A stretch of DNA of 59,897 nucleotides, filler included, from Dugesia japonica (taxonomy: Eukaryota), in the NCBI GenBank assembly GCA_001938525.1. It is 4 parts of 4 records of this genome, joined end to end, with 100 filler letters (N's around TTAATTAATTAA, not from the genome) between each part and the next. Parts side by side here need not be neighbours in the genome. Positions count along the whole stretch, not along the records: positions 1 to 9,217 come from MQRL01623843.1; 3 more parts are not named here. One strand, given 5' to 3'. Shown here in pieces: positions 1-47,337 of this stretch; position 1 is the stretch's first letter; each line of letters opens with the position of its first letter. The notes under the pieces are model-generated. The model was not told where the DNA came from, did no database searches, and worked only from the letters and a program-made list of their open reading frames with translations. A program made the position numbers and the translations under genes.

Positions 1-400
1 TTTCATATTTTAGTGGTGAATATGAAAGTATGGATATTAAATTAGTTTTTGATACTAGTAAAGATTTTGGAGATTCTTGGCTTTCAACATTTTAAAAACG
101 ATGAATTCATTGAAAAAATAAAAATTAAATATTATTATCCGATTGTAACTAAGCATTCTTTTCAATTCGAATCTTAACTATGTATAAAGGATTTAAATCA
201 ACTAAATGACTATTTTAAGAAACACCTTCCAAAGTTATTTAAAACTTTATCATTAAAGCAAGATGAAATATTTGAATTTACATTAGCAAATAGAACTAAA
301 AGTGTTAAATTCGATAAAATCTTAAAAAAAACATTAGGATTAAAAGAATCGCAATATACTCGAATATAATTTAATGATAACAACTACTATATAAAAGTAA
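1..400 (+). pseudogene. Fragment of Polinton minor capsid (penton) gene, second copy
   Basis: Translates with stops/frameshifts as FQHFKNDEFIEKIKIK...KDLNQLNDYFKK...FEFTLANRTKSVKFDKILKKTLGLKESQYTRI. This is colinear with FHDFKNNDSVEKINIK...EDLNQLNENFKK...FEYTLSIKTKNIKFDKILTKSLLLKDPQYTRI at ~40640-40970 (-). Confidence 0.85.
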
Positions 401-958: not shown

Positions 959-1273
959 TTAATTTCGACCAAACAAATAAAATATCACAACAGATGTCAA
1001 TAAAATACCAGCAATAAATTTATTTCTCTTTGGTCTCTTTAATTTTTCTTTAATTTTCTCCATGAATATTGACCGGACAATGCGTTCAACAAAGTCATGT
1101 TTTCTCAATAGGCCATTGTCAATCCTGCTTATAAATTGAATTTCGTCAACGGATTCACTGGTAATTTCATCTGCCAATTTTTTAATTTGTCTTTCCATTT
1201 CATTCATTTCTTCAACTGATCCATTGGTGATTGCATCTGTAATTTGTTTAATTCCCCTTTCGATTTGGTTCAT
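959..1273 (-). CDS. 104-aa tail-anchored membrane protein with a duplicated 22-aa helical repeat, Polinton-associated
   Basis: Intact ORF. Residues 1-22 and 23-44 are repeats; a basic stretch precedes a hydrophobic C-terminus (FIAGILLTSVVIFYLF). A homolog lies at 32294-32541. Confidence 0.75.
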   Translation of the reverse strand: MNQIERGIKQITDAITNGSVEEMNEMERQIKKLADEITSESVDEIQFISRIDNGLLRKHDFVERIVRSIFMEKIKEKLKRPKRNKFIAGILLTSVVIFYLFGRN

Positions 1274-1774
1274 TTTGTTTTCAACTTTGAAATGTAAAAG
1301 TGACTGATTTTACAAAAGCTACTGATTATATACTTGCTGCGATACATACATACTCGTTATTTGTTAGATTTTATTGGTCATTAAATGTTTTAAAGGAAAT
1401 GAATGGTTATTATTAATTTATATGATTGGATGTAATTTGTTTAAAATGATATAATTTGTTATCTAAATTACTCATGAACATGATGCGAGCATGTATTGTG
1501 CATGACGTGCGCATCCATTTTGCATGGTGACATCTTATGCCACGGTTAATGTATAAATAATATACTCATAATCTTTAAAATACATTGTTGCTATGTAAAT
1601 AATACAAATAATATACTCATAAACCTATACAATCATGAAAATATTTTCTTACAAGTTTTTTATATAGTCTTATTAAGTATACATGTCTTGAAAGGTTCCA
1701 TGAATTTATGATTTTTATGAAAAAAGTCCCGTGATTTTATCATTTTCTTCTCAGAAATGTTCTCAACCAATATG

Positions 1775-5600: not shown

Positions 5601-5782
5601 AGTTGACATTGACCTAATAAAGATTGTCATGGAAATATCATNNNNNNNNNNNNNNNNNNNNNNNNNNNNNNNNNNNNNNNNNNNNNNNNNNNNNNNNNNN
5701 NNNNTCTGACCTTGAAAATTCGACCTTGAATTATTTCAGCCAATGAGAATGAAGTATACTAAAACACTGACCTTGAAAGACT

Positions 5783-6010
5783 TTACTCGAAGAACTTGGA
5801 AATGATAATTTGCAGAAGATCACCCTCATCACACTTTTCTTGCCTCATAAAATTTTTAAGTGATCTAAAAAGGTAAAAATCACTTGGAGAAAGGTCTGAG
5901 GAATAAGGCAGGTTGTGAATGATGTCACATCCAAGTTCGTCCTTGATGTATTTTTTCGTTGCAGTAACAGTATGCGGAGGAGCGCTGTCCATCTGAATCC
6001 TAAATTTTTA
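5783..6010 (-). mobile_element. Mariner (DD34D-type) transposase C-terminal remnant
   Basis: MDSAPPH...LPYSSDLSPSDFYLFRSLK matches the mariner DNA(R)PH and PYSPDLAPSDFxLF motifs. Confidence 0.85.
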
Positions 6011-8597
6011 TTTGGAAGCTTCCTTTGGCCCTGTGTAGCTGCACATTGATTTCATCATGCCTGTGACAATTTCTGAGCTGGAAGATATGGTTACATGAGC
6101 AAGAGCTTGCTGCTCCTAGAGCTTGTCGATCCTCAGTTAAAGGTCTTCTAGAATCTTGTTTATGTACAGGGCTCTATTGTATCTTCTTAATGTTGAGTTT
6201 ATAAGGTACAAAAATACATATAGCATGCAAGTCAACAGAAGCAGATCTTAAAAAACCAAATCCCAAAACAAATCAACTCAATCCAAATCCAATATCATAA
6301 GAAGATTCAATTTATTATGACATTATTATCAATTTGAATTATCCTGACATTATTTATTTAATCTTATTGAACNNNNNNNNNNNNNNNNNNNNNNNNCAAT
6401 TGTGTATATTTGAATTTATGAAATTTATTCTATTTTTATTTATTTGTTTTATTTTATTTTTATTTTGAAAAACAATTTTATTTTTATTTTAATTTTTATC
6501 AATTTTGTAAAACATTTGGAAAAAACAATTTATTTTTATGAAAAATATTTGATTTTATTGAAAATGTAAAAATANNNNNNNNNNNNNNNNNNNNNNNNNN
6601 NNNNNNNNNNNNNNNNNNNNNNNNNNNNNNNNNNNNNNNNNNNNNNNNNNNNNNNNNNNNNNNNNNNNNNNNNNNNNNNNNNNNNNNNNNNNNNNNNNNN
6701 NNNNNNNNNNNNNNNNNNNNNNNNNNNNNNNNNNNNNNNNNNNNNNNNNNNNNNNNNNNNNNNNNNNNNNNNNNNNNNNNNNNNNNNNNNNNNNNNNNNN
6801 NNNNNNNNNNNNNNNNNNNNNNNNNNNNNNNNNNNNNNNNNNNNNNNNNNNNNNNNNNNNNNNNNNNNNNNNNNAATATCGTATTAACATATATTTGAAA
6901 ACAAACAAAGAATTTTTAACACCCGTAAAATCTTAATATATATATTTTTTCGAACCATAAAATCTTTTGTTGAGTAGAAATACCCAACATTAAACTGCTA
7001 GAACTACTTTTGTACCATAAGTGCTGATATTACATCTAGGCCCCTCATTTCATTAATAATTAGCACATTTTCACTTTCATTCCTTCCATTTTTATAGTGT
7101 GTTTGTAAAAGTACATGAATTTTATCCTTGCATTCTGTCATTCTAAAATAAATTTTTAAAAAATCGATATAATTAAATTAAAAATAATTAAATTAAATTA
7201 ATATTAAAATAAATGAAAGAAAAGAAGATAAGCGAGTAATGAAATACGAATTAAACGCAAATTAATCATCTATATTTAGATGGATGAAAACGCTTAACAA
7301 AACTTTGGAAACCAGCAAATTTTCCAGAATTGTCCCAATTAAAGCTATCGAGTCGAAGTGCAAATATTCGCCAGTTTCGATGGTCGTTGCTACGAACTGA
7401 TCAAGAATTTTCCAGGCGTTGCACGGGAAAATTGCAATGCTAGTAATCTAGATGTCACAGATGAGATGACAAAATCTTGAATATACCCGTAGACACAAAG
7501 CTCAGAGTATGAAGATCTGAGAGTTAGAAACCAACGTAAAGTAGTTCTACAAGAAAACAAGAGTTTATGCAGACTCCGCCTGCCTCTTCCTCAGTTTCAC
7601 CACTCAAGAATATCCAACGAACATTCGTTGATTTGAGCATTGAAGACGATTTACATCGTATTGTGTTTGCTCATAAATTTGAACATCTGGGTGTGAAAAT
7701 ATGATAAATTGATTTAAATTGTTTTGTTTACTTAATATGACTTCTAACGCCTATTAAGAATGAGTCCGTAAACATGCAAATGGTGCGGTTATGCACTCTT
7801 AACGACAGTTAAGAATTTTTTAGGTGGCCATTAACGTATCGAAGGGACGAATGCATTAGGTCCTCGTTGGTGAGTCATAGTGTAATATCTTTACAGTCAA
7901 GAAACCCCAACAATAGCAAAAATTCCCGTATTTGGATCATAAGTAACTACCATAGTTTACAGAAAGAACCTAATCACAGAAAAGTGAAAATAAACTACCT
8001 CCCTCTGGAAAATTGGAGTCGGTATGTCTAATACAACTGGTGAATATATAAAGGGTTATAAAGGAATATTTTAAGGGTTCTTGGAGCTGTTGACGATTTA
8101 TTTTGTTATTCAAACTGAAAAGAAATTGTTGAAATCCCATTATGAAGCATTAACTATTTCATCGAAAATCGTAAATAGACGTCTCAGATTATGGATGGAT
8201 CAGAATAAACTAAATTATTCAAAAAATTATAAATGATCACAAAATGAAGATAATTTTTTGCAAAGATCAAACGAAGTAATAGCTAATAAACTCTTAAAGA
8301 AGTCAATCAATCCCAACGTCGAAATAATTATAAGAAAAAACATAAAAATAATCTCAGAACTTAAAAAAATAAAATTAAACAAATTTATTATTAATCCAGG
8401 AAAAATTATTTATTTGGAGTTGTAAGTTGAATTTATTTGTTTTAAATATCTAATTTGATAGTTTTTTAAACGCTATTAATATTCAAAAAGTAAATTTTAT
8501 TTAAAATGTATTAAAATTAAAAACTTAACTAATAGTAAAATTAAGTATTTGCGAAAAAATTGTGAAATTATAAATTAATCATAAATTATATTTTAGA

Positions 8598-9153
8598 ATG
8601 AGTATATCATCATCAAAAGTTACTGATTTGAATAATGGTAGTTTAATTAAGGAAAATAATCTGTGTTAACTTAATATTTTCCAGGAAAATCTGAAAATCC
8701 GGCTTATCGAATTTACGATAATCCAGTTTTTGAAAGTAAATATTCAGTAACATATTTCTATTTTATTAAATACAAATTTTATGAGGATCTCAAAGTATAC
8801 ACTCAATGAAATCAAGTAAAATAAAGAAATCCAAAAAGAAAACCAAAGAACCGGATGCAGTCAGTATTAAAAAATTAGTATGGTTTTTATATACAAAAGA
8901 AATTTTTTTTAACTATTTCAAAATCATAGTTTTCCTTTGCTACACGCGGTGACATTGTAATGATTATTATTGCTTTAATAATGTCGTGTGGTACTGGGAT
9001 TTGTTGGCCATTAATAATTTTAGTATTTGGCAGCACCACTTATTCAATGGCAGATTATCAATATTATGTTTATAATTTAACAGCGTTACTAACTTCTAAG
9101 AACATATCAAATCCATCATCAATGACTGTCACAGAAATGGAACAAATTGCTAC
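8598..9153 (+). CDS. ABCB1: 5' exons of an ABCB1/MDR P-glycoprotein-family transporter, truncated by scaffold end
   Basis: Exons 8598-8637, 8685-8735, 8786-8877 and 8930-9153, joined by GT-AG introns of 47, 50 and 52 nt, stay in frame. They give ...KKTKEPDAVSIKKLFSFATRGDIVMIIIALIMSCGTGICWPLIILVFGST, the typical MDR elbow helix and TM1. The symbol is family-level only. Confidence 0.8.
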
Positions 9154-9217
9154 GTAAGAGTGTAATTTATGAAATGAAAATTCAGTTTTAGAAAATGAAT
9201 TTAAACAAATTTTATTT

Positions 9218-9317
9218 NNNNNNNNNNNNNNNNNNNNNNNNNNNNNNNNNNNNNNNNNNNNTTAATTAATTAANNNNNNNNNNNNNNNNNNNNNNNNNNN
9301 NNNNNNNNNNNNNNNNN
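9218..9317. other. Artificial scaffold linker (44 N + TTAATTAATTAA + 44 N)
   Basis: Exactly 100 bp, stops in all six frames, identical at three places. Confidence 0.95.
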
Positions 9318-9690
9318 CCATTTAACAACATCTTTGTATCCATTTAACAACATCTTTGTATCCATTTAACAACATCTTTGTATCCATTTACTTAAATCTT
9401 TGTATCCATTTACCTACATCTTTGTATCAATTTACCTACATCTTTGTATACATTTAACAACATCTTTGTATCCATTTACTTACATCTTTGTATCCATATA
9501 ACAACATCTTTGTATCCATTTAACAACATCTTTGTATCCATTTAACTACATCTTTGTATCCATTTACCTACATCTTTGTATACATTTAACAACATCTTTG
9601 TATCAATTTAACTACATCTTTGTATCCATTTAACTACATCTTTGTATTCATTTAACTACATCTTTGTATCCTTATAACAAGATCTTTGTT
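9318..9690. repeat. 22-bp minisatellite CCATTTAACWACATCTTTGTAT, ~16 copies
   Basis: Units start at 9318, 9340, 9362 and so on. Confidence 0.95.
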
Positions 9691-25439: not shown

Positions 25440-26027
25440 TTACAATTTTCCAATTAAATGAGTATTATAAAGACTTCTACAGTAGTTTTTTGCAGCATTA
25501 TTTGATGGAATATATGGAGATGTTGTTCTTGGTTTTGAGATAATTTTATCTGGCTCAAATACAGGATTAGCGTAGAATCCAGAAGATTCAGGAAGTTTCT
25601 TTGGAGAATACATTTTGTTTGATGAATAATTATTCAATTGTTGTAGAGTTGAGTTTGGTTTTGGATAATTATTAACTGTCAAATTTGTATTGTCATTCAT
25701 TTTTCGTTGATTGTCATTTTTATTACTTATTTGATTGTTATTATTAGTTTTTGATTTTTTCTGCTCAAAAACCCTTTCAGGAGATAATAAATGAGAATTC
25801 TTTTGAATATTTTGAAAACTTTCATGTTTTAATTGTTCTTTATCAAGAATCAAAGAGTTCTCTTTCAATATTCGAGCATTCTTTCTGGGTTTTTTCATTC
25901 GTTTCAAACATTTTAAAATATTAAACAAAATCGCTAGAATTAAGAAACTGCTACCAACAATGAAAATAACAATACCAGTTGTGTATTTATTATTATATCT
26001 TGGTCTTGTCCTAGTCTCCAAAGACAT
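25440..26027 (-). CDS. 195-aa single-pass membrane protein with a long low-complexity cytoplasmic tail
   Basis: Long ORF in very AT-rich DNA. TM segment GIVIFIVGSSFLILAILFNIL is followed by a basic stop-transfer stretch and a YANPVF motif. Confidence 0.65.
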   Translation of the reverse strand: MSLETRTRPRYNNKYTTGIVIFIVGSSFLILAILFNILKCLKRMKKPRKNARILKENSLILDKEQLKHESFQNIQKNSHLLSPERVFEQKKSKTNNNNQISNKNDNQRKMNDNTNLTVNNYPKPNSTLQQLNNYSSNKMYSPKKLPESSGFYANPVFEPDKIISKPRTTSPYIPSNNAAKNYCRSLYNTHLIGKL

Positions 26028-29347: not shown

Positions 29348-29369
29348 ACTTTTTTTAAAATAAAATAAA

Positions 29370-29992
29370 AAACAACAATATTACAAATATGATAACAATG
29401 CAATCACAACAAATTATTAAAAAACGTAAAATATCCAAAACATCACTTATAAACAAACGAATGAGACGAAATGGAACAATATTTCAAAAATGATTTGCGG
29501 TAAAACTGAATAAAGTATTTTTGCTAGTCCATCACATCAAGAAGTTATTGAAAATTGTGCATTGTAAGATATGTTTATGATGAATTTAATTTCCAAATCA
29601 CAAAGCAATGTAAAGTTTTTTATATGGATCACAAACTGAATATTTGGATTTGAATGATACTTTATTGTATATTTATGTGAAGGTAGTTGATTGGGCGGGT
29701 AAAAATTTGACTGACAAACATGATGCAGTTCCTAGTAACTATATACTGCATGTGCTTATTAAGGATGTAATTCTTTCATTTAATATTTTCAAAATTGAAG
29801 GTGTAAATGGTACTTGTATTTTAAAAGGCATTCATTGAAACTATATTGAATTAAAGTTGTGACAGTAAAAATAGTGTATGGATTACAGCAAAGGGTCAGA
29901 AGATGACAGAAAAATGTCTATTAAAGCATATAAACCATTGTCTCTATGTGGTTTCTTGCAACTTAACTTCATGGATGAACTGAAATATCTTA
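29370..29992 (+). pseudogene. Polinton fragment: basic tail of the virion protein plus major capsid N-terminus (ATG 29490)
   Basis: KKRKISKTSLINKRMRRNGTIFQK* then MICGKTE*SIF..P..Q..IE...EYLDLNDTLLYIYVKVVD..GKNL...VPSNYILH...LCGFLQLNFMDELKYL; colinear with ~39410-40010 (-). Confidence 0.88.
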
Positions 29993-32293: not shown

Positions 32294-32541
32294 ATGAATC
32301 ANNNNNNNNNNNNNNNNNNNNNNNNNNNNNNNNNNNNNNNNNNNNNNNNNNNNNNNNNNNNNNNNNNNNNNNNNNNNNNNGAAAATGGTCCGATGAGTAA
32401 ACTAGACCATTTTGAATTTATTGTCCAATCAATATTCATGAACAAAATTAAGAAAGAATTGGAGAGACAAAGAGAATTAAATTTGTTGCTGTAACTCTAT
32501 TCACACCCATTGTGTTGTTTTATTTGTATAAAAGAAATTGA
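32294..32541 (+). pseudogene. Frameshifted homolog of the 959-1273 tail-anchored protein
   Basis: MN...ENGPMSKLDHFEFIVQSIFMNKIKKELERQR, then in another frame IKFVAVTLFTPIVLFYLYKRN*. About 200 bp upstream also matches 1275-1470. Confidence 0.8.
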
Positions 32542-32899: not shown

Positions 32900-34889
32900 C
32901 AATAAAACCAATAAAGCGTCTTCATTACACGCACTACATACAATGAAAACATATAATACATACACTAAACCGTATGAATCTTATACATTATAAGCCGAAT
33001 GACTATTATACATACAAAACAAAATTAATATGTTTTATGCACACAGAAAACTAAGGAGTATTATACACACTATTAACCCTATAGAGTTATATAATACACA
33101 CACTAAACTCAACAGAGTTTCTTAATTACACACAATAATTCTTAAAGAGTAATAACTACATAATACACTCAATATAGTCGTATAATACATACAATAAACG
33201 TAATAATGTCAAATAACTCACCTACAACAAGCCTTATAATGACACTAAATATACACACAAATAACTCAATTGAACTAGTTAAAACATACAATAAATCCAA
33301 TACAAACAGTTAAATACATACAATAAACCAACTAGAGCCATATAATACACGCAATACATCAAATATACTCATAAAATATACTCATCTCTGTAAATAATGT
33401 TACAGAATCCCAGGGGGAATATTAAAATTTTATACATATTTATCTATCTTTGCATCATAAGTACATGTTAACCAATGAAATGTAAGTTAAACAAAGGACT
33501 GATATAAACTTAACAATTGATTAGTAACGCATTTGTATAAAATTATAGACGATATGATTGAACATATAACTTCACCGGTTCAAGGTAATAATAATAACTA
33601 ATATTAATACAAATAATTATTTAATCGTATCTGATGTTCAAGAAAACGTTGTAGAAATAGTTGGAATAAATTGATCGATAGAGGAAGAAATGAGCGATAC
33701 TCACCTAAATAATGTCATTATTGATGAAGATATACAACCAAATAATGACAATATTGATGAAATATTGTCGGATACACCTACCAATAAGGAAATAACTGAT
33801 TTTCAGTCAATTGAGGAAGAAAATGATAAAGAATTGACTGATAAAGCCACATTGATTAAATTTTCAAGCGTCTAATGCATTTTTTAAATAAATTTTTCTC
33901 ATAATTGTCTTTTGGGTGTTATCTTACATAAATATTTTAATTGTAATACATAGATATTGATAAAATATTTCAAAATTTACTTGAAAGTAAATAAATAAAA
34001 ATTAGAAGTAATATATTATAGAGGCCGGTGAAATATTTTATAAATTAGATAGAAGTCTACAAAAATATATTAAAAATTAAATAGAGGTAATTAAACGCTT
34101 TTAAAAATTACATAGAAGTCTGTGAGATTTTACAAAAAATTACATAGAAATCGGCGAAATTTTCTAAAAATTACATAGACTTCAGTGAAATTTTATAAAA
34201 ATTACATAGAAGTGTGTGAAAATATAACAAAGTACTTGTATGTGTGTTCATTTTTTATTAAATATTACATGTGCAACACGAATGCAATACATATATGCAA
34301 CATAAATACATTTTTAAAATAAATATCATTTTTAAATAATTTTGTCTATTTATAATTTGTAAGTAGTAAAATTTACCATCTGCATCATAAATACAACATA
34401 AAAGAATTTTAAAATCTTTCATAATACTTTTTAAACAATTTTATCTACTTATAATTTGTAAATAGTTAAATACGACATCTGCATCATAAATGCAACATAA
34501 ATATATTTTTAAAATTTTTCATAATCATTTTTAAGTAGTTTTGTCTAATTATAATTTGAAAGTAGTAAAATATAACATCTACACCATAAATGCAGCATAA
34601 AGAAATTAAAAATTCTTTCATAATCAATTTTAAAAAATTTATCCACTTATAATTTATGAGTAGTTAAATATGAAATCTACAACAAAAAGATGATAATTAA
34701 ATGAAAAAAATGAAAATGAAAACCCTGAAATACTTAAACAGGTCCAAAGGTCAAACCCGTACAATTGCACATGGGTCAAAAGTCAAATCCCGAAATCCAT
34801 AAACAAAGTCTAGAATACTTAATTCATAAACACTTTGCCGACAGGGGAAAGAGGGAAAGGGTGTTTATGTGCGCCTTTTTTACACTACT
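32900..34889 (+). mobile_element. Repeat-rich element arm (degenerate acidic ORF, ~33-bp and ~100-bp tandem arrays) ending in ACTACT; paralog of ~45350-47337
   Basis: 33240-33285 ~ 45942-45987 and 33491-33980 ~ 46204-46760. The ~100-bp unit recurs at 34377, 34476 and 34576. Both copies end GTGCGC...ACTACT. Confidence 0.55.
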
Positions 34890-35324
34890 TCTTATGGTTT
34901 CAAAGGTTCAACAAGAATATATTTTTATACTTGTCATTTTCTCTGTATAATTATTAAAAAAAATATATAAAAAATCGTAGATTTTGAACATTCAAAATTA
35001 CATGGTAATTAATTAAATTATACAGTTTATCAATTATATTTAAACTTAAATTTAATTTATATTGATTTATATATAATGAAATTTTCAGACAATAATTTTT
35101 AGATATTATTTTTCAGACATTAATTTTTTATAACATCGGATTTTACAGAATATTGTTATTAATTTGTTTTGCGTTTTCTTAGTAAAAAATAAAAAAAATG
35201 AACAACATTTTTTTGAAATTAAAGCATATATTTTAGTATACTACAAACCCATGCAATAAAATATTTCATTTGTAATGTTGCTTTTTGTTGTAAATGGATC
35301 TTGATATACAATTTTATTGTACAC

Positions 35325-35797
35325 AATTAGTTTTGATAATATCAAAATCTGGAGCAAGAACAAATGTAAAGAAGGGATGATTGTTCTTAAAATCATTAAG
35401 TGTTATTCCACAATTCAGATTCTTATCCAAATATCCCATATTTCTTACTATAAATTGCAATTGAAAGTTAATAATTTAATAATTTGTGTTGTGGTATAAT
35501 TATCGCTTGGAAAATCACGAGTATATATTTCTCGATAATCAGTGTTTTTGTCAAGGAAACAGAAACAGTATCTAGATTTTGAAATGTTGAATTCGAGATT
35601 TTATACTTACCATTATATTGTTCTCCACTTTGAAATGTAACTAGAATAAAATTAGTCAATGAAAGATCACCAAAGATTTGTTCTTTATAAAACTATGAAC
35701 TATTTTTACTATTGCAAATGCGACGTATTCCTTGGTTCTTATCGGATAAATAGCATTTTGCTTTTTTAGTCCTAATTGATGAGCAGCTAATACTGAG
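35325..35797 (-). pseudogene. Polinton major capsid protein (double jelly-roll), C-terminal part
   Basis: SVLAAHQLGLKKQNAIYPIRTKE...QIFGDLSLTNFILVTFQSGEQYNGKY...NCGITLNDFKNNHPFFTFVLAPD fits the MCP motifs AHxxxL..A.YP, NGxY and FDLxPD. Confidence 0.85.
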
Positions 35798-38700
35798 TGT
35801 TAGGTAAATCTTCAATTGTTAATTCATTTTGCAAATCAGAATTCATATTGTTAGAAATTTTTTATTTTACTACTACAAACTATACTTAATNNNNNNNNNN
35901 NNNNNNNNNNNNNNNNNNNNNNNNNNNNNNNNNNNNNNNNNNNNNNNNNNNNNNNNNNNNNNNNNNNNNNNNNNNNNNNNNNNNNNNNNNNNNNNNNNNN
36001 NNNNNNNNNNNNNNNNNNNNNNNNNNNNNNNNNNNNNNNNNNNNNNNNNNNNNNNNNNNNNNNNNNNNNNNNNNNNNNNNNNNNNNNNNNNNNNNNNNNN
36101 NNNNTTCAAATCTGTCTTGGCTTTTATTTTTTGTTTCTACCTTGATGAGTACAAAATGAGTAAGATGAGTAAGAGTAAATGTTCTACCATACAAGTAATG
36201 TTTGAAATGTATACAGAAATAATAAACAGCCAATTACTTCTTTCGTGTAATGCATTAGCCTTTCTCATAACTTGTCATTAAGTGTGATCCATAGGCAACA
36301 AGTCTTTCTCTTCCTTCTTTATCTCTCTGTGACAATACTGCTCCACTTGTATCGAAACTAGCATCTGTATCTAATATAAATTCTTTGTTTATGTCCGGAA
36401 AACACAATATTGTTTCAGTAATTAAAGATTTTTTCAGACCCTCAAAAGTATCGTTTATTTCATCTGTCCATTCTAATTTCTTGTTGCTTNNNNNNNNNNN
36501 NNNNNNNNNNNNNNNNNNNNNNNNNNNNNNNNNNNNNNNNNNNNNNNNNNNNNNNNNNNNNNNNNNNNNNNNNNNNNNNNNNNNNNNNNNNNNNNNNNNN
36601 NNNNNNNNNNNNNNNNNNNNNNNNNNNNNNNNNNNNNNNNNNNNNNNNNNNNNNNNNNNNATCCCTGCTAATTATGTGTCCAAGAAACTTGATTTCGCTT
36701 AGAAGAAACTGACACTTTTCCGGATTAATTCTTATACCAGCCTTCATTATTTCCATCAATACTCTTTCAATTACTTCATAGTGTTGATCTTTGTTGTTCG
36801 TAAATATCAGTATGTAAACAAGATAAACCATGGCTTCATTGATTCCACCTACCACTTTTGTCATCATTTCCTCAAAAATATTTAAATAATCTTCTTTTTC
36901 CTTTTCAATTATATTCAGTATTCTCGTTTTAATCTTCCCTTTCTTGTCCCTGGTGCTGCTGCGATGCCAAATGGCATTCTATTAAAACAATATTGCGCGT
37001 GCTTCGTTGAAAACGCCGTTTTTTCTTGAGATTTGTCTTCGAGCTCTAACTGATAATATGCATTTCCCAAATCTATTGAACTGAAATATTTGGTTCCATC
37101 NAACTTGTTCAGCATTTCATCGACATTAGGCACCGGAAAAGCTTGTCTTTTCGTTACAGCATTCAATTTTCTGAAATCCAAACATACTCTTATGCCTTTC
37201 TTTTCCTTTATCCAAACACATATCAGTGGAGTATTCCCTGGAGAGTTGCATTTCCGGATAATATTATTCTCGAAACGGTATTGGATAGCTTCTTCAATTT
37301 TAGATTCTAAGTTCATTGGTTGTCTTAACGATTTTTCATTGATTGGTTCACCACTTAAGATTATTTTGTGTCTTGTCAGATGTGTGCGTCCTACATCCCA
37401 TTTATTTGCCATAAAAGCATCTTCTTTACTTTCAATTATTTTCAATGACCGCTGATCCTCTTTAATCTTAAAAATATTTAAGGCTCTTTTTAATCGCTCT
37501 CCTTTTTTAATTTGTCTACCGAATTTCGCTTCAATATTACAAATGTAATTTTCTACTTTTCATCCGTTTTGCTGTTAACCTTTCGCATAAGCTGATATCC
37601 AAAATTCTTCTGCATATCTATTCCTTCTATCAGATCTGGTGTTACTCTTTCAGCAACTAAGAAAGTAATCTCTTTGCAAACTTCATCAATTATCATCCCG
37701 GTTTTAACTTTCCAAACAATTTCAAGTGTACTATTATTTGCACAACGCAATCTTTCATCACTCATTTCTAAATTTCCTTATCATAATTTATTAAAACAAC
37801 TCAAACTCATCTCATTAATTCGAGACCCTGTATCTAATAGACATTCTACTTTTTTTCGTTGAATTGATACCGTAGCACTTGGTCTGCTTTGCAATTTATG
37901 GTAAGAAATATTTGTTTTCTTTTTTGCTTCAACTGTTTCAACCCATTCTACTTTTCTATCATCTGCAAAATTTTTCATCTTTAAGAACCTATATACTTTT
38001 CTGTAACTTTTCCTATATCATCCCACTTTTCGACTCCTTGAGAATAATTACTAACTTCATTTAACAATGAATGACTCCAACCTACTCCTCTACTAGTAGA
38101 GCTCTGCCTTTCGGAATCACTTTCATATGCTTCCTCATATCCATCGTTTGTACTAACATCTTCATCTTCAATTGCATGTACTCGATTATATCGGTTTCTT
38201 GATCTTTCTGTAGTCATAAATTTCTCACCTGTTCTTTTCGCTTTCAAATTTGTGTAGCACTCTTCTGCTCTATGTCCACCCTAACCACATTGTTTACACC
38301 TCACTTCTTGACATAACCTTCTAATATGACCAACCTTTCCACAACCAAAACATTTTGTTGGTTTTTTATTTGGACAATCTCGACTTATATGTCCTGTTTT
38401 ATGACAAGTCCAGCACTCTACTCCTTTTTTGTCGGACAATTTACTTTAGTATGACCGATCTTATGACATAACCAACATTCGGTATTTTGTTTTCCCTTNN
38501 NNNNNNNNNNNNNNNNNNNNNNNNNNNNNNNNNNNNNNNNNNNNNNNNTTCGATTTGTAACTCTCACGTAACTTCTAACTGCATCAACTCGATCTCTGTT
38601 TTTCTCTACTCAATCTACTAACATCATCATTTCTTCAATTTCTTCTATATTCTATCGTTTCCGCCAATTCACTTTTTCTTCAACTTTTTTGTTATCTGAT

Positions 38701-39283
38701 CAATATACTAGCATCTTTGCAANNNNNNNNNNNNNNNNNNNNNNNNNNNNNNNNNNNNNNNNNNNNNCTAAATCTTTTACATTTCTAAAATAAACTTGAA
38801 TCTCTTCATTTCCACGTCTGTAGTTAATCAAATTTTGAAAATTTTTGATAAAATCTTTCTTTTTCTCAAATGCCATGCGTAAACGAGCCTGAAAACCTTC
38901 AACGTTTTTCAACGTCTTTGCATATTCTTCCACCAAATCTTCATCTAACAAACAAGAGACTAATCTCTCTTGTTGTTTCACATGAGTGATGTTTTTAGCT
39001 TCAAAATNNNNNNNNNNNNNNNNNNNNNNNNNNNNNNNNNNNNNNNNNNNNNNNNNNNNNNNNNNNNNNNNNNNNNNNNNNNNNNNNNNNNNNNNNNNNN
39101 NNNNNNNNNNNNNNNNNNNNNNNNNNNNNNNNNNNNNNNNNNNNNNNNNNNNNNNNNNNNNNNNNNNNNNNNNNNNNNNNNNNNNNNNNNNNNNNNNNNN
39201 NNNNNNNNNNNNNNNNNNNNNNNNNNNNNNNNNNAATTAACTCAATTTCTATTGGCTCAAAAAATAATAATTATTTCCTCATA
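35798..39283 (-). mobile_element. Ty3/Gypsy LTR retrotransposon (gag-PR-RT-RNase H, integrase not seen) inserted in the MCP gene
   Basis: CCHC knuckles (~38260-38480), LLDTGS, CLDFRKLN, SIDLGNAYYQ, RMPFG and ILDTDAS...FKHYLYGR. CTGAG is duplicated at 35793-35797 and 39284-39288; plus-strand ends are TGTTAGG...CCTCATA. Confidence 0.93.
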
Positions 39284-39921
39284 CTGAGAGTTCAACATGT
39301 ACATTAACTAATAATTTTACATCTACTAATACACATTTAGGCTCATTGGCTGCATTTTCCAATCAAATCTTAGATGATGTTCTTTTCAATTGAATATGAA
39401 CATTGAGACTTGGAATAAGATATTTCGGCTGATCCAGGAAGTCGAGTTGCAATGAACCGCACAGAGACAATTGTTTTGATGTTTTAATAGACTTTTCTAC
39501 CTGCTTCTGATCCATATTCCATTGCTGTAAGACATATATTCTTACTATCACCATTATAAATTATTATAGTTTCAATTAATGCTTTGTGAAGATAAGATCC
39601 ATTCCTACCTTCAATTTTGAAATTATTAACCAAAAGAATTACATCCTTAAACAGTGTATGCACATATAGTTACTAGGAACCACATCATGCGTGTTAGTCA
39701 AATTTTTACCTGTCCTATCAACTTCCTTCACTTTAATATACAATAAAGTATCATTCAGACTCAAATATTCTGTTTTAGATCCATTTATAAGAAACGCTAC
39801 GTCGCTTTGTGATTCAGAAATTAAATTCATAGTAAAGGACATCTTTAAATGTATCACTTTCAATTACAGCTTGTAGAGATAGACGATAAAAAATACATAA
39901 TTCAGTTATACCACAAAGCAT
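39284..39921 (-). pseudogene. Polinton major capsid protein, N-terminal part
   Basis: MLCGITELCIF...QAVIE...FLINGSKTEYLSLNDTLLYIKVK...VVPSNY...LCGSLQLDFLDQPKYLIPSLNVHIQLKR; frameshifted. Confidence 0.9.
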
Positions 39922-40361
39922 TTTTTAAATATTGTTCTATGGCCTCTCATCCGTTTGTTTATGCGTGATGCATGTGATTTTTTACGCTTTTTATTAGTTG
40001 GCTGTGTTTTTGGTTGATTTCTTTTCATATTGCTTATTTTAGATGATATTTTATTTGTTATACTTTGCGGTAATATGTTTGCTACTTTTGGAATCATACT
40101 GTTAACTCCAATAGGTAACAAAGATACTTCATTTCCAAGTTCGGCTAATGTATTAGATTTTAATGTTGATAGTATTTTTCCATTATTTGCTAGTACATTC
40201 TGAGCTGTTATCAAATCAAAAGAACCAATTCGTATTAGAATAGGTTAAGTAAATCTATCTATTGTTTGAAACCAACCAGATCCATACTGTTTTCCAAGAA
40301 AGTAAGGTAATTATCCGCTTGCTTGACTAGTACTCTACAATAATACAATATCAGGATTCAT
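39906..40361 (-). pseudogene. Polinton small virion protein (QxGxG motifs, amphipathic helix, basic tail)
   Basis: MNPD...QASG*LPYFLGKQYGSGWFQTIDRFT*PILIRIGSFDLITAQNVL...KKRKKSHASRINKRMRGHR; lies between the minor and major capsid genes. Confidence 0.7.
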
Positions 40362-43162
40362 TATTAATTTTACTAAATCAGTTTTTGAGTCTTCAGCAAA
40401 ATTGAGTAGTTTTATAGTATTATCTTGTATATTAATTTTTATATTGTTTATATATGATGAAAAATAGGTAAATACATTGGATGATCAACAATTATTTGAA
40501 CTACCTCATCATTCTCCTGTTCTTCTATCTATACTGCTTTTAATAAAGGAACATTAACATCAACAACTAAAATAGGTTCAACAATACTACAATATATGAA
40601 CATTTCTTTATAACACGTTAGTATTCTAGGCTTCATGATACTTTTATATTGTAGATGTTCATCATCAATACGTATTCGAGTATATTGTGGATCTTTTAAT
40701 AATAATGATTTTGTTAAGATTTTATCGAATTTAATATTTTTAGTTTTAATTGATAATGTATATTCAAATAGTCCATCTTTATTTAATTTAAACGTTTGAA
40801 ATAACGTTGATAGGGTTTTCTTAAAATTTTCATTTAGCTGATTTAAATCCTCTTTATACAATTCGGTTTCAAATTGGAAATAATGTTCAGTTACAATTTT
40901 ATAATACTATTTAATATTTATTTTTTCAACGGAATCATTGTTTTTAAAGTCATGAAAACGAATCAAAAAAATTTGATGATCATCGAAATTTATACTATTA
41001 TACTTTCTCTTAACTTCCCTCTCTACCATATGTAAATTATACCAAGTTTTCAAATGTACTGTATTTTCACTATTTGAAGGCAGTACTAGAATAAAAGGCA
41101 GTAAAGAGTTTGATAATATTTGGAAATAGAAGGCAGTGCTCGAATAGAAGGCGGTATAGATTTTAATTAAGAATTTCAATAATTAACAGTATTCAAAAGA
41201 GCAAAATAATGTCAATGAGCCATCTTGAAAAAAGTTGAAAAGACAACATAATATATTTTATAGATTATTTTCCTAAAATCGATTGCCAATAAATTTTATA
41301 TACCTCATTATTTGAAAGTTTATATTACCAAACCGTTAATTAATGACCAGCAGAAGAAAATCATAAAGCATTTAGTATAAAAAAGAGATTGTCAACCAAC
41401 TCGAACATAAGTCGCTTTTTGGAGTGTCAAAAGAAAATAACATTCATATCAGACTAATTTCAAAATGGAAAAGTGAATTCGGGGAGGAACATTTGGGTTA
41501 TCAGTATATGACATGTAGAAAATCTGGAGCTGGCCGCAAGCCAATCATTGAAGAATTGAAGGACAATATCTTCGACATGATTGTAGACAAACGCTACCGT
41601 GGATTGATAGTGAGTCGCGGATATATCCAGGTGTTTGCACTTCAACTTGCGAAGACAGATGAAAGTGGGTTTAAGGCGAGTCCTCATTNNCTTTCTAACT
41701 TCATGAAGAGATTTCATTTGTCTTTGCGTGCACCAACAACCCTGTTTAAAATTCAAGATGATCAGATTGTTGCACGAGCCTTGTCTTACAAGAAGTTTAT
41801 TGAAGATACGAATTTAACAAACTACGGTAATTCTAATATTATATGCATGGATGAAACAGCAGTATATTATGGGGATATCAATCAAAGAACAGTTGACATG
41901 ACGGGAAAAAGTTCTATTTATATTGCGGCAACCAGGTAAGAGTCATTTAGAGTTACATGTATTTTGGAAATAAGGCGTGATGGTACAAAAGTTACACCGA
42001 TGATCATTTCTAAGGGAAAAAAGAATGGAACTTCAAGTATTAACAGTATCGATATTTTTGAAAGCGAGAAAAGCTGGGGAACTCAAGAAATTATCAAACA
42101 ATGGTTGGACAGAAATTTCAAATCAGGATTTTTTAACAACATAAAACATATTCTTGTTTGAGACTCCCCATCCACTCGACGTGCAAAGGGCATGAAAGAG
42201 AATTCGGACATTAAAAAGATATATTCTATTATAATACCATCTGGCCTTACGGCATATCTTCAAAGTCTTGGTTTGCTAATCAACCATCCATTCAAGATTT
42301 ATATTAGAGACGAAATTAATGATTTTATTGAACACCGTATGAAGATAAATGTAAGAGGAAATCCTATCAAGCCAAGTCTTGATGAAGTCATGACGTGGAT
42401 TAAAAATGCCTTGGATAAAATAACACCTGAAGTAGTTAACTATGAGTTTATTGCTTCATACATGCATCCGAGTGCATCTTAGAAGGATTCGGCAATAATG
42501 AAGCATGAAAAGTTCGGTCTTCTTGTTGATAGCCAAAATATGATACAAGTGATGACAGATGCCCTTTTTAAAGAAGAAGACGATGTATTGGTGATTGATG
42601 AATAAATTACATTATCATTAATAAAATTATAAATATTTGTTTTACATTTACAAAAACAAAATAATTATAAACATTCTTTCTAATTTTTATAGAAATTTAA
42701 TAGAAGGCAGTACCCAAATAAAAGGCGATGTAGTATTTTTATAAATTTTTGAAAAGCTGGAAATAGAAGGCAGTGTTTTTCAATAAAGAAAACACGGTAT
42801 CAAATGATAAAACTGTGAAATTTAATATCACAACTAAAGTTGATCTTTTTTTCTTGAATGTTATACCTGTTTCTAAATTATTTTAAATTTATCGTGAGAA
42901 TTAACAGTTAAAAGCCCTTTTTTCTTTTTATTAACATCAAGTATTAGTTCCTTCTCAATTGGTTTAAATAATTCATATTCAATCCTAGATTGACGGTAAA
43001 TTGGCATGGTTGAATATAAAAAGCTGAAATCCATCAACTTTCCAACTACCATCTTGTAAATTGGATTTTGAAGCTCAACAATGTAATTACTAGTAGTATT
43101 ATTTGGATGAACTAAAAGGCTACTATTACTAGGTAAAGTGTATAGAAATTATTGGATTACAT
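40362..43162 (-). pseudogene. Polinton minor capsid (penton) gene interrupted by a pogo-like transposon
   Basis: N-terminus FY-TLPSNSSLLVHPNNTTSNYIVELQNPI..DGSWKV (from 43162); C-terminus MFIYCSIVEPILVVDVNVPLLKAV...MYLPI...IKINIQD. Confidence 0.9.
41059..42797 (+). mobile_element. pogo/Tc2-like DNA transposon, 1739 bp, decayed transposase ~41343-42606
   Basis: TA on both sides (41057-58, 42798-99); imperfect TIRs CTGTATTTTC / GAAAACACGG; subterminal AATAGAAGGCAGT repeats; CENP-B HTH (FKASPHxLSNFMKRF) and DDE_1 motifs (ICMDET, LV*DS, GLTAYLQSL). Confidence 0.92.
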
Positions 43163-43164
43163 CT

Positions 43165-43554
43165 TATTTTTCGTCTTGATTGACTATTTGCGATGCTAAT
43201 ATCCAACTTGGTTTTCGTGCCCATGTCATATTACATAGTATTGTTTATTCTTTCTAGTTCCCATTGATTTAACCGGAACAGCTTTTACCAATCTACTGAA
43301 TACAACCATACATTTCAAAATATACTTGTAACTGTTATTAATTCTTGAATATGAAATCATCTCCATTATTTCCATTTGCCATAATTCATAAATACCATAT
43401 ACTTTATATACTCTTATTAGAAATCTTTTCAACATAGGTTTGTCAGATTCTCTTTTCTTTTCGATTTTTGAGCTGTTTTCATCAATTTTTCAATGCATCA
43501 AAAGCCTGCTAGGCTTTTTGGATCCGTTTATATTGTTTTTATTTTTGTCTCCAT
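43165..43554 (-). pseudogene. Polinton RVE integrase with C-terminal chromodomain, catalytic core largely deleted
   Basis: METKIKTI*TDPKSLAGF...RVYKVYGIYELWQMEIMEMISYSRINNSYKYILKCMVVFSR..AVPVKS is joined directly to QYYVI*HGHE..SWILASQI. Confidence 0.85.
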
Positions 43555-43770
43555 TACAACAATTCGATGCGAATTCCATGTCAAAATTAGATATTGATTG
43601 CATTGGATGCATTCAAATCTACATTACCACGAACAATATTTATAATATTCTCAAGTAAATCATTTATAAAATATGGCGGGAATGATTATAAAATTCTCAT
43701 TCTCAAAGATTTTGATGATTTAATCAATGTAGTAAAAAACGGAATACTTCTTTGTAATTTCATATTAATT
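43555..43770 (-). pseudogene. Conserved small Polinton protein (PW-like, tentative)
   Basis: MKLQRSIPFFTTLIKSSKSLRMRIL*SFPPYFINDLLENYINIVRGNVDL resembles the L..L......R..IL......I....E...N...GNV.L pattern of Polinton small ORFs. Confidence 0.55.
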
Positions 43771-44033
43771 AAATTATACATACCATTTATTTGTTTATAA
43801 TGATATTTATTCATCATTCTCAGTTTCTTTTTGCTAGTTTTTTTAATGATATTTAATTGCTACCTTTTATTTACCCGCGGCTTCTTATTTAGACGATGTT
43901 TCGTATGCGATTGCTTTCTATTTTTTGATATGTTTTCTTCGTTAAAGATATTATTTACCATTTAACAAGACCAATAGTTACTTGATCAACTACAAATTTC
44001 TTTAATTTGGCCATTTTTATAATATTAAGAAGA

Positions 44034-44666
44034 TTACCTATTTTGTTTATATACTGTGATACCGTTTGGATTGAATATATCTGTTCTCACTCTATAGTCA
44101 TCTTGAAATTGTTATGTACAGTCAAGAAATACATATCCATGAGGTATTTCTGTTGCATCTTGAAATGATTCAATCAGGAATTGTCTGTTATTAGGATATG
44201 CTTGTCTTGCTAGAAAATCAACCACAGTTTGATCTCTAGAATTTTTGAATAGAATCAAGATTTGCAAATTTAAATTGTGTGTTCTATGACTACCTTCTTG
44301 ATGAAATAGATTTTGAGTAATAAATATCACAGTCACATTACGATGTCTCGATATCCATTGTAAATAAATTATTGAAATTTCTTTCTTTATTTGCCTCCTG
44401 ATACAGATCAACAATAACATAACCTGGTCTCAATCTTTTGTTCCAATTTTTATCAAACCCACTTATAAATTTCATTTTAATACTACAAAATTCAGATTCA
44501 GTGAGACCATTCTCTTCATCTGCGCCTCTATACCAGTATATGTTTTTAAATTTCGACATGAATAAATTTGATTTCAATAATTTATATACAAAGTTTTTTC
44601 ATTATCACTAGACCCAATAATTTGATAGACTGCATCATTTCTTAATTTCTTTTTAGAATTTTTCAT
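44034..44666 (-). pseudogene. Polinton A32/FtsK-like DNA packaging ATPase
   Basis: Decayed Walker A IIGSSDNEKT and Walker B YVIVDLY, then SRHRNVTVIFITQNLF, LILFKNSRD, PHGYVFLD and YRVRTDIF. Confidence 0.92.
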
Positions 44667-44917
44667 AATTTATTACATTGTTTATATTTTTTTTATCGGA
44701 TCAATTAAATTAATTCCGTCAAAATCCAAATGTTCCTCATTAATTATGATAACTAATATTAATTTCAAAGGTGAAATGTTGCAAGAAAATGAGCTTTTCA
44801 ATATGTTAACACTGTCAATTCAAAGGTAAATGTGACATGTATATGATTACTATACTATTTTGAATGTCCAAAATCTAGGATGGTTGACATATTATTAAAT
44901 AATTATACAATCATATC

Positions 44918-45082: not shown

Positions 45083-45349
45083 ACTTCATACATTAAATTT
45101 ATCCAATACAATCTTTTAAACCGCATCTTAATACCTAAAATTATCACAATTTACATGTCATTTTATTAAGGTAAACACAACAAATCTATTTATTTACATA
45201 TAAATTTCATTAATTTATACTAATTACAATAAATTACTAGCAAACCTGATAATTTCATTAATCAATTTCAGTAATTATTGTATTCATTTCATCAAAATAC
45301 ATTAAATTTAAAATTTAAAATTTAAAAATTTACTTCATAAAGAGTAAAC

Positions 45350-47337
45350 TAATTGAGTCTTATACACAGTATACCATTGGATATTATACACACAATAAAC
45401 CACATAGATTCATAAAATAAACACAAAAGTTCTGGTGATAGATGCATTAAGATATCTAAAGTCATATAATACACACAACTAATCCAATATAGTGATATAA
45501 TACACACACATAATATACTCTATATATTCATATAATCCAAACAATATATCTTATAATTCACACAATACATGAAATAATGTCATACAATACATATATATAA
45601 CCCAATCAAATCATTTAAATACACACACAATATACCATATAGTCATATAATACGTACAAATCACTCTATATAGTCATATAATACACATATACAACACAAT
45701 AAATTCTTTTAAATACACAGAATAAACCTATAATCTTTATAATGAATTCAACATGGCCATATAATATACAAACAAATATCCTAATAAAGTCACTTAAATA
45801 CATAAATAACCTAATAGTATCTTATGCATAGAAAACAAATTGGTATTACATATTAAATAGAGCCATATAAAATACATAAGAAACCTAATTAAACCATATA
45901 ATAAATCATATACAGTCGCTAAATACTTACAATAAACCTAATAATGACATTATATACACACAAATAACTCAATTGAACTAGTTAAAANNNNNNNNNNNNN
46001 NNNNNNNNNNNNNNNNNNNNNNNNNNNNNNNNNNNNNNNNNNNNNNNNNNNNNNNNNNNNNNNNNNNNNNNNNNNNNNNNNNNNNNNNNNNNNNNNNNNN
46101 NNNNNNNNNNNNNNNNNNNNNNNNNNNNNNNNNNNNNNNNNNNNNNNNNNNNNNNNNNNNNNNNNNNNNNNNNNNNNNNNNNNNNNNNNNNNNNNNNNNN
46201 NNNACAAAGGATTGATATAAACAACTGATTAGTAATGCATTTGTATAATATTATAGACGATATTATTGAACATATAAATTCATCGGTTCATGGTAATAAT
46301 AATAATAATAACTAATATTAATCTAAATAATTATTTAATAGTAGATGATTTTCTAGAAAATGATGTAGAGATAGACGAAAACCATTTGATATTGATGAAA
46401 TAGATGCAACATTAAAGAGAGAGATTAACGATACTACAACTAAATGATGATATTATTATCGAGAAATTGATTGATGTACAGCCAAATTATGTCAATATTG
46501 ATGATGAAATAATTGATATGGTTCCACATGATGATATTTCTGATGAAGTTATACCTGATACAAATACAAATAAGTATATGATTCGTGAGGAAATAAATGA
46601 TTGATAAAGAAATATTGATAGAATTATAAATGGAAAAAAAAGATTTATGTTATTGAAAATTTTTTTTATTATTTTCTTTTGTGTGTTATCTTTTGTGTGT
46701 TAGATATTTCAATTGTAATAATTAGATGAAAGTTAAAATATTGCCAAAATTAAATAGAAATCATTACAATTTTTAATAATAAATTACAAAGAAGTCTACA
46801 AATATTTTCAAAAATTGCATAGAAAAAATAAATATATTTGTTCAAATTTGTATTTTTAGAGTCTAAAATGTATCGAAANNATAAACTTTAATTTAATTAT
46901 AACATATGTAATAAAAATAATTAAATTATCAAACGCGAGTTTATTTTGAAATGCAAAAAGAATATAGAAATGCATTTGGTAAGCAGTTTAAACAAAGACA
47001 TGTTGGATGTGATACTGGATAATATTTTTAAATATTTTTAATAAATTTATCAGGGGGGGTGGTCTTTGTTCTGACTTAGAAAAGTTTTCGAAAAAAGTTT
47101 TACTCATCCAATGAGTCATTGTCTTTGTTCTACATAACCGATGTAGAATGAGTTTCAAATGAGTTCAAACGAGCGATGACTCATCAGCATGACTAATTTT
47201 TTTGTTACAAAAATGATGAGTCATACAAATTTTTCATAATCATTATTTAATTTAATTTAGCTACTTACTATTTGTAAGTAGTTAATAAGCGACTAATATT
47301 TCTTAGTGATTTTGTGCGCTTCTATCTACCTACTACT
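45350..47337 (+). mobile_element. Second copy of the repeat-rich arm with acidic ORF relic, ending in ACTACT
   Basis: Homologous to 32900-34889; ACTACT at 47332-47337. Confidence 0.55.

Follow-up and report, generated by a model that had tools for sequence, protein, structure and literature searches.

The open reading frame and the two elements of the window

The window analysed here, 59,897 nt of AT-rich DNA joined from four contig parts of the Dugesia japonica genome, carries on its minus strand an intact, ATG-to-stop ORF of 104 aa (959–1273). ORFs of at least this length arise by chance at a rate of 0.05 per window, as judged from 20 shuffles of the window DNA. A hydropathy scan of the protein found a single hydrophobic stretch (residues 86–102, mean Kyte-Doolittle value 2.35) with basic residues ahead of it and a tail of only two residues behind, which represents a predicted C-terminal membrane helix (968–1018, minus strand), in agreement with the first-pass annotation, where the locus had been described as an intact ORF ending in a TM helix. 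It will be referred to as the tail-anchor gene, and its 104-aa version as subfamily A. Two tandem 22-codon units (1142–1273, minus strand) share 76% DNA identity and 12 of their 22 residues; the 82-aa forms of the gene, and most homologues from outside this genome, have just one such unit, and form A carries it as an in-frame tandem duplication. Upstream of the gene is a conserved block (1274–1400, minus strand), in which a TATA-type box precedes the ATG by about 55 nt; the box is altered in the window copy. Beyond the block comes a repeat-rich end region (1620–2700) that corresponds to the terminal inverted repeat of sister copies, the outer terminus of which is not reached in the window. On the other side, a non-coding spacer (418–884), holding a marker segment at 604–714, stretches from the capsid module to the ORF. 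What is left of that module is a penton-like (minor capsid) remnant at 46–399 (plus strand), so labelled from its similarity to L164, a contig described below, and partly from motifs that we take to be penton-like. The remnant is cut at a deletion junction near 418 and adjoins the spacer only by way of this internal deletion; in sister copies it is the major capsid gene that ends there.

A homologue occurs on a different contig at 32294–32541 (plus strand), with about 75% DNA identity to the window ORF, some 190 nt of upstream sequence included, and the marker segment recurs nearby (35175–35294, 74.6% identity to 604–714). The homology, upstream conservation, marker and separate contig had all been recognised previously and stand, but this second copy is of the shorter, 82-aa type, has 79 N at 32302–32380, and is frameshifted just before the hydrophobic helix. 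The remnants of its element comprise an acidic ORF (33570–33842, plus strand), the decayed 3' part of a major capsid-like gene (35326–35796, minus strand) with the remainder of that gene past a retroelement insertion (39282–39921, minus strand), PZ-like and penton-like remnants split by a DNA transposon (39906–43148, minus strand), integrase and packaging-ATPase remnants (43229–44598, minus strand), and a short TBP-like remnant (44734–44850, plus strand) that is head-to-head with the ATPase. The retroelement that splits the capsid gene (36105–39007) is presumably Gypsy-like, and the transposon that splits the penton gene (41376–42482) is presumably of the pogo/Tigger kind. Both window copies of the tail-anchor gene are antisense to capsid-module sequence, as had been reported. 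Other pieces of the same element family were seen at 29356–29992 (PZ and capsid) and 45083–46838 (repeats and an acidic ORF), and a 195-aa ORF at 25440–26027 (minus strand), in which an N-terminal hydrophobic stretch is combined with a low-complexity tail, is possibly a host exon.

Genomic copies and the TBP-carrying Polinton lineage

Far from being confined to two copies, the tail-anchor gene is a high-copy repeat. Searches of the D. japonica genome with the 104-aa form scored at least 150 matches out of 1,468 candidates, and with the 82-aa form at least 150 out of 1,370, figures that are lower bounds and not copy numbers. From 98 loci, 79 gap-free copies were recovered, falling into three subfamilies, A (104 aa), B1 and B2 (both 82 aa), and 40 of the 79 are free of stops. 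Linkage to Polinton genes was assessed at 114 loci, one per contig, drawn from the top matches. Of the 26 type-A loci with at least 1.3 kb of downstream sequence, 24 lie no more than 3.5 kb from a Polinton gene, which at 21 loci is the capsid gene, convergent with the tail-anchor gene, the 26 including the second copy of the window, which was misfiled there and is really of the 82-aa type. End-repeat DNA lies upstream of the gene at 29 of 31 type-A loci. The type-B (82-aa) loci have a recognised Polinton gene nearby in only 8 of 29 cases; what they share is little more than the gene and some 400 nt upstream of it, their flanks being heterogeneous, and they look like varied deletion derivatives. 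Inverted duplications in which the gene recurs at the other end of an element were also observed (L031, at 402–1661 and 8146–9536; L043:4616–4918; L248), that of L031 taking with it the end of the capsid gene, and an 82-aa copy (L076) is found with a tandem array of repeated TGACTCA motifs 200–600 nt downstream of the gene.

The DNA context of homologues outside this genome could be followed for one cluster, represented by three near-identical JGI contigs, including L164 and L165. L164 (13.2 kb) is an intact-looking Polinton, and carries an acidic ORF, a TBP-like gene, the tail-anchor gene, an ATPase, two small ORFs and an integrase, followed by the structural genes (two penton-like ORFs, then PZ-like and capsid-like ORFs), a 154-aa ORF and PolB. 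Its TBP-like gene matches PF00352 (E = 5e-18), its integrase rve (E = 1e-12) and its packaging ATPase Pox_A32 (E = 5e-6, over the cut-off), the latter two with identities of 44% (remnants) and 63%, respectively, in type-A copies. ORFs whose size and order would suit major and minor capsid proteins occur, none with a Pfam match, and the labels capsid, penton, PZ and PW are applied to L164 and to this lineage on the basis of motifs that we take to be characteristic, the capsid labels also following the first-pass annotation. The two penton-like ORFs of L164 are tandem paralogues (5616–7687), and an ORF for a ubiquitin-conjugating enzyme (PF00179, E = 2e-12) lies at its left edge (222–719). An unnamed ORF of 189 aa (1253–1822), which we presume to resemble a single-strand DNA-binding protein, has homologues in the D. 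japonica genome (L268–L277, E about 1e-5) and no match among PDB sequences.

In the D. japonica type-A elements L038, L031 and L247, the order is end repeat, unnamed ORF, Cys-rich ORF, TBP-like gene, ATPase, PW-like gene, integrase, penton, PZ, capsid, the tail-anchor gene (reversed) and end repeat. Long inverted end-repeat arms are present in L033, L036, L038 and L039, and ends of the AGTAG type in L033, L036 and L042, so the element is bounded by terminal inverted repeats. TBP-like ORFs over the PF00352 cut-off were found at L043:3481–3834, L038:3485–3784 and L164:2420–2869; in the D. japonica genome, where it has at least 150 matches, the TBP-like gene is head-to-head with the ATPase. L038, L031 and L074 have a second version of the block upstream of the tail-anchor gene, 77–79% identical, at their opposite end, and in L038 and L074 it directly precedes the start of another ORF. 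A comparison of this promoter-block ORF of the D. japonica copies with ORF 1253–1822 of L164 gave no clear homology call either way.

The 19 type-A contigs that were mapped over long stretches yielded no PolB. L038 (1–7656), L031, L247, L036 and L039 retain the genes for capsid, ATPase, integrase and TBP, and between their end repeats neither PolB nor a protease was seen. A lineage without PolB altogether was considered and rejected, as PolB is present in L164 and in TBP-carrying relatives within the genome. The PolB of L164 shares 44–60% identity with D. japonica loci matching PF03175, and PolB of this type is abundant elsewhere in the genome, with TBP-lineage genes as neighbours in 4 of 19 contigs selected by TBP; in L198, L201 and L214 PolB adjoins DNA 76–88% identical to type A, and PolB fragments occur near 82-aa copies in L106 and L202. 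A polymerase-less master element is possible. It could be speculated that the abundant subfamily is a satellite Polinton lacking a polymerase, with integrase, ATPase, capsid genes and its own TBP, which would borrow PolB from relatives with similar ends, the tail-anchor gene occupying the PolB slot of those relatives and the promoter block being duplicated at both ends, but we regard this as rather doubtful. If true, the gene would give the TBP-encoding Polinton clade its first described host modulator of the membrane-tethered kind. An adenovirus-like maturation protease is reported for 74% of Polintons (PMC4028283). A protease-like query from another family of the genome retrieved only the 10 loci of that family, and neither L164 nor the TBP lineage. 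A second, unrelated group of Polintons (L090–L103) has open PolB frames of up to 1,527 codons and, presumably, protease-like, 2-TM and PLA2X-like ORFs as well; ORFs adjoining an L164-type PolB at L104:1150–3141 are presumed to resemble a viral envelope glycoprotein.

Of the TBP-selected contigs 2 of 19 carry the tail-anchor gene, and of the PolB-selected contigs 1 of 18; it is therefore regarded as accessory, although these contigs are short and absence from them is weak evidence. Its linkage, its patchy presence, and the selection on it in the active element (see below) favour the original proposal of a viral accessory gene belonging to a Polinton.

Selection, decay and transcription of the copies

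Variants common to at least three copies comprise 48 synonymous and 61 other changes (44% synonymous), and singleton variants comprise 99 synonymous and 345 non-synonymous or stop changes (22%; p = 1e-5 against shared). Since shared variants are more synonymous than private ones, selection acted on the active element, and decay followed insertion. In type A by itself (55 copies), the synonymous share in the tail-anchor ORF is 0.38 for shared and 0.18 for private variants (p = 2e-4). As controls within type A, two capsid stretches gave a share of 0.52 for shared and about 0.2 for private variants, two non-coding flanks and frame +2 gave no signal in the shared-versus-private test, and frame +1 gave a weak one (p = 0.04). 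Pairwise dN/dS within groups is 0.34–0.92, values from protein-ranked copies being biased low, for which reason DNA-ranked copies and the frame and flank controls were added. Net dN/dS between subfamilies is 0.6–1.8, with a bootstrap range that spans 1, and so does not differ from 1, and a codon model applied to all 79 copies returned a whole-tree omega of 0.58; given these two results, constraint on the gene is weak. The tail-anchor gene was constrained while the element multiplied, less so than the capsid gene, and its copies decay after insertion. Besides its bearing on this gene, the comparison of shared and private variants offers a way to read selection on an endogenous virus gene from fossil copies.

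The first-pass annotation had also raised the possibility that the window copy is retained or domesticated. That it has become a host gene might be suggested by an intact ORF lying beside a decayed penton remnant, and by the low-level, mostly sense-strand transcripts of the family seen in three poly(A) runs of a single study. The ORF is indeed intact, but its position next to the penton remnant is due to the deletion near 418, and 6 of the 29 copies nearest to it in DNA are equally intact; such intactness is ordinary and domestication is therefore unsupported. The dN/dS of the window copy against its sisters (0.46–0.63) is like that among the sisters (0.52–0.70), and four of its eight private changes fall at first or second codon positions. 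RNA depth over 991–1260 reached about 30–40 in the three oligo-dT runs and was near 1 over the ORF in a fourth run from the same species; the first mate mapped mostly to the plus strand in the three oligo-dT runs, which in most stranded libraries corresponds to sense RNA. Reads at least 99% identical to the window copy numbered only 4 of 1,912 (0/44, 0/600, 0/629 and 4/639 on a 2.7-kb stretch), many of the differing sites being shared; the runs may come from a different strain. The RNA-seq data point to weak transcription of some member of the family, and the window copy itself is nearly without such reads. A domesticated gene would be a single locus, more strongly constrained than its sisters and expressed, a combination that the window copy does not present. 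Domestication is already largely refuted and we consider it highly improbable; the window copy is a fossil, intact by chance, and one of many.

Protein design, possible function and known systems

A profile of 29 intact natural copies, searched against 1.84 billion protein representatives, gave 21 matches, 20 of them true family members of 52–112 aa; the other (P0002) was rejected as a repeat-protein artefact. The 20 homologue clusters come only from ENA, JGI, Logan or MetaClust and have no informative name, and these roughly 20 metagenome protein clusters share 23–82% identity and the same design. Identity to the 82-aa form is 23–51% among 17 distant homologues that were aligned, and the tree is deep. 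A hydrophobic stretch at the end, with a tail of 0–9 residues, is present in all 18 homologues examined, and a hydropathy scan of 20 proteins found what is expected of tail-anchored proteins, namely one hydrophobic helix, no more than about 30 residues from the C-terminus, and no N-terminal signal. G18 and R45 are invariant in the 17 outside homologues, which keep a hydrophobic core in residues 4–52, and the anchor keeps only its hydrophobicity; judged from this alignment, the protein is a putative binding domain on a plain anchor. The model of the 82-aa form consists of a helix (2–16), a loop (17–35) and a long helix (36–81) at pLDDT 76, and that of the 104-aa form is poor (pLDDT 51).

Among 23 members, Pfam gave no informative family match and PHROGs only one weak match, and no tail-anchor protein matched a PDB sequence. 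Foldseek found nothing among viral and PDB structures at E up to 0.001, the best hit of a wide VIA-align fold search (Z 6.4) was to generic helices and uninformative, and the ESM Atlas had no usable match (best 0.82, for P0052). A Bcl-2 or BH3-only relationship drew no Pfam or PDB sequence match and no BH3 pattern by eye in the alignment, the fold search being uninformative on this point. Word-index protein searches gave 1, 6 and 7 matches, and scans of viral contigs and prokaryote genomes gave no true locus of the gene; L163, a phage, was a chance match, and L267 was judged to be one from its 24-residue match alone. These Pfam, PDB sequence and fold searches are consistent with the earlier statement that the gene matches no recognised Polinton core gene, and they revealed no known family.

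We are confident of the coding status of the gene, its linkage to the element, its selection followed by neutral decay, and the existence of outside homologues with the same design. As a complete reading, just short of an even chance, we favour an accessory gene of the TBP-carrying Polinton lineage whose predicted tail-anchored protein is likely a host-facing adaptor. The protein would be inserted after translation by its single C-terminal helix. Short helices with basic flanks target the outer mitochondrial or ER membrane, and one or the other would be its site. The conserved cytosolic domain of 50 residues, held on the organelle membrane, would bind a host partner while the element is active, and expression may be early rather than late, as the upstream motifs hint. 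An adaptor fits best because a conserved domain sits on an unconserved anchor, divergence is fast, presence is patchy, and the promoter pattern agrees. That the membrane-tethered protein binds a host protein and probably keeps the cell permissive is the part of the proposal put forward with more reserve.

The promoter pattern is mixed. The motif TATAAACA occurs 10 times in L164, mostly just upstream of ORF starts, including those of the ATPase, PZ and capsid; it is absent upstream of the tail-anchor gene in L164, which has a different upstream motif in common with ORF 1253–1822. A canonical TATA is found upstream of 21 of 30 type-A and 24 of 33 type-B copies, and TATAAACA upstream of 20 of the 30, where it overlaps a canonical TATA, and of 1 of the 33. 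In L164, L036 and L038, TATAAACA precedes most structural genes, often from within the preceding ORF. Taken together, the upstream motifs appear to lean to early, host-TBP-driven expression.

The TATAAACA box of type-A copies, and the position of the gene in L164 and L165, where the ATPase follows it immediately on the same strand, count against the adaptor and fit a late role. The main competing explanation is a late assembly or egress factor that would hold capsids or the packaging apparatus at the nuclear envelope or the ER and aid particle exit, as do herpesvirus UL34 or the adenovirus death protein, and it gains from the convergent capsid gene of most type-A loci and from the lack of a detected maturation protease in the TBP lineage. 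We think it possible though on balance unlikely, since the box is missing from L164 and from nearly all 82-aa copies, the position and strand of the gene vary between subfamilies, the long capsid-bearing relatives L249, L254, L263 and L266 showed no homologue, and the tail-anchor gene diverges fastest of the eight genes compared (32% between L164 and type A, the others 39–63%).

The adaptor proposal also has to be set against two readings of the helices themselves. Small size, a single helix, and a central helix hydrophobic on most faces, a feature suggestive of packing with a partner or with itself, might indicate a viroporin or a small phospholamban-like oligomer, either making membranes permeable or regulating a host pump. 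This is improbable, as no polar or small residue is conserved within the membrane helix, conservation lies in the cytosolic domain, and phospholamban was matched by only 1 of 23 members (E = 0.008). A SNARE mimic, driving or blocking membrane fusion, had been suggested when the locus was first described, and the helices of the cytosolic part, the basic residues next to the membrane, the C-terminal anchor and the invariant arginine recall one. SNAREs have a 60-residue heptad motif with a central Q/R layer next to the anchor, which was not found here: the model is a broken helix-loop-helix, with its loop at 17–35, and has no clear fold match. In R-SNAREs about 39 residues separate the arginine from the anchor, here about 19, and no SNARE or synaptobrevin family appeared among the Pfam matches of 23 members at E up to 0.1, so that a SNARE mimic is very improbable.

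Returning to the host-facing adaptor, viral tail-anchored or small membrane proteins that resemble it in topology or general role are herpesvirus UL34, the adenovirus E3 death protein and viral Bcl-2, from which it differs in having no sequence or fold match to them in Pfam, PDB or BFVD searches. L164 presumably has PW-like and PZ-like genes as separate ORFs. A literature search on Polintons and adintoviruses returned no description of the tail-anchor gene in the parts of the papers it covered (including PMC8502044, PMC8097293, PMC4028283 and PMC11071308), and the element is of a known kind whereas this family of accessory genes is apparently undescribed; it demonstrates neither a new mechanism nor domestication. 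Vertebrate Maverick PM, PW and PZ are core genes of uncertain function with an omega of about 0.001 (Barreat and Katzourakis 2021, PMC8097293); the tail-anchor gene shares with them its small size, its conservation, its uncertain function and the type of element that carries it, but it is patchy and weakly constrained.

Among the accessory genes of adintoviruses are PLA2X, GasderminX and Cupiennin, which are membrane-active, and a set of unnamed 'Adintoc' genes (Starrett et al. 2021, PMC8502044; preprint 10.1101/697771). The tail-anchor gene is similarly small, conserved, lacking in database matches and predicted to be membrane-associated, and differs by its single C-terminal anchor and a conserved 50-residue domain of its own; the word 'transmembrane' is absent from the main text of that paper. 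Identity with an Adintoc gene is possible. The gene does not appear in the gene lists of PMC8502044, and may already be labelled in its sequence files, Repbase or GenBank TPA. Several accessory genes of Polintons and adintoviruses are unexplained, with no tested host-interaction factor found in print. MELD viruses with an adintovirus-like PolB have a TBP-labelled gene (PMC8502044, Figure 5 legend), just as the lineage that carries the tail-anchor gene encodes a TBP-like protein, but the text of that legend names no tail-anchored neighbour. The tail-anchor gene provides a marker for the TBP-encoding clade, and adds a compact, easily expressed family (78–104 aa) with invariant residues to mutate.
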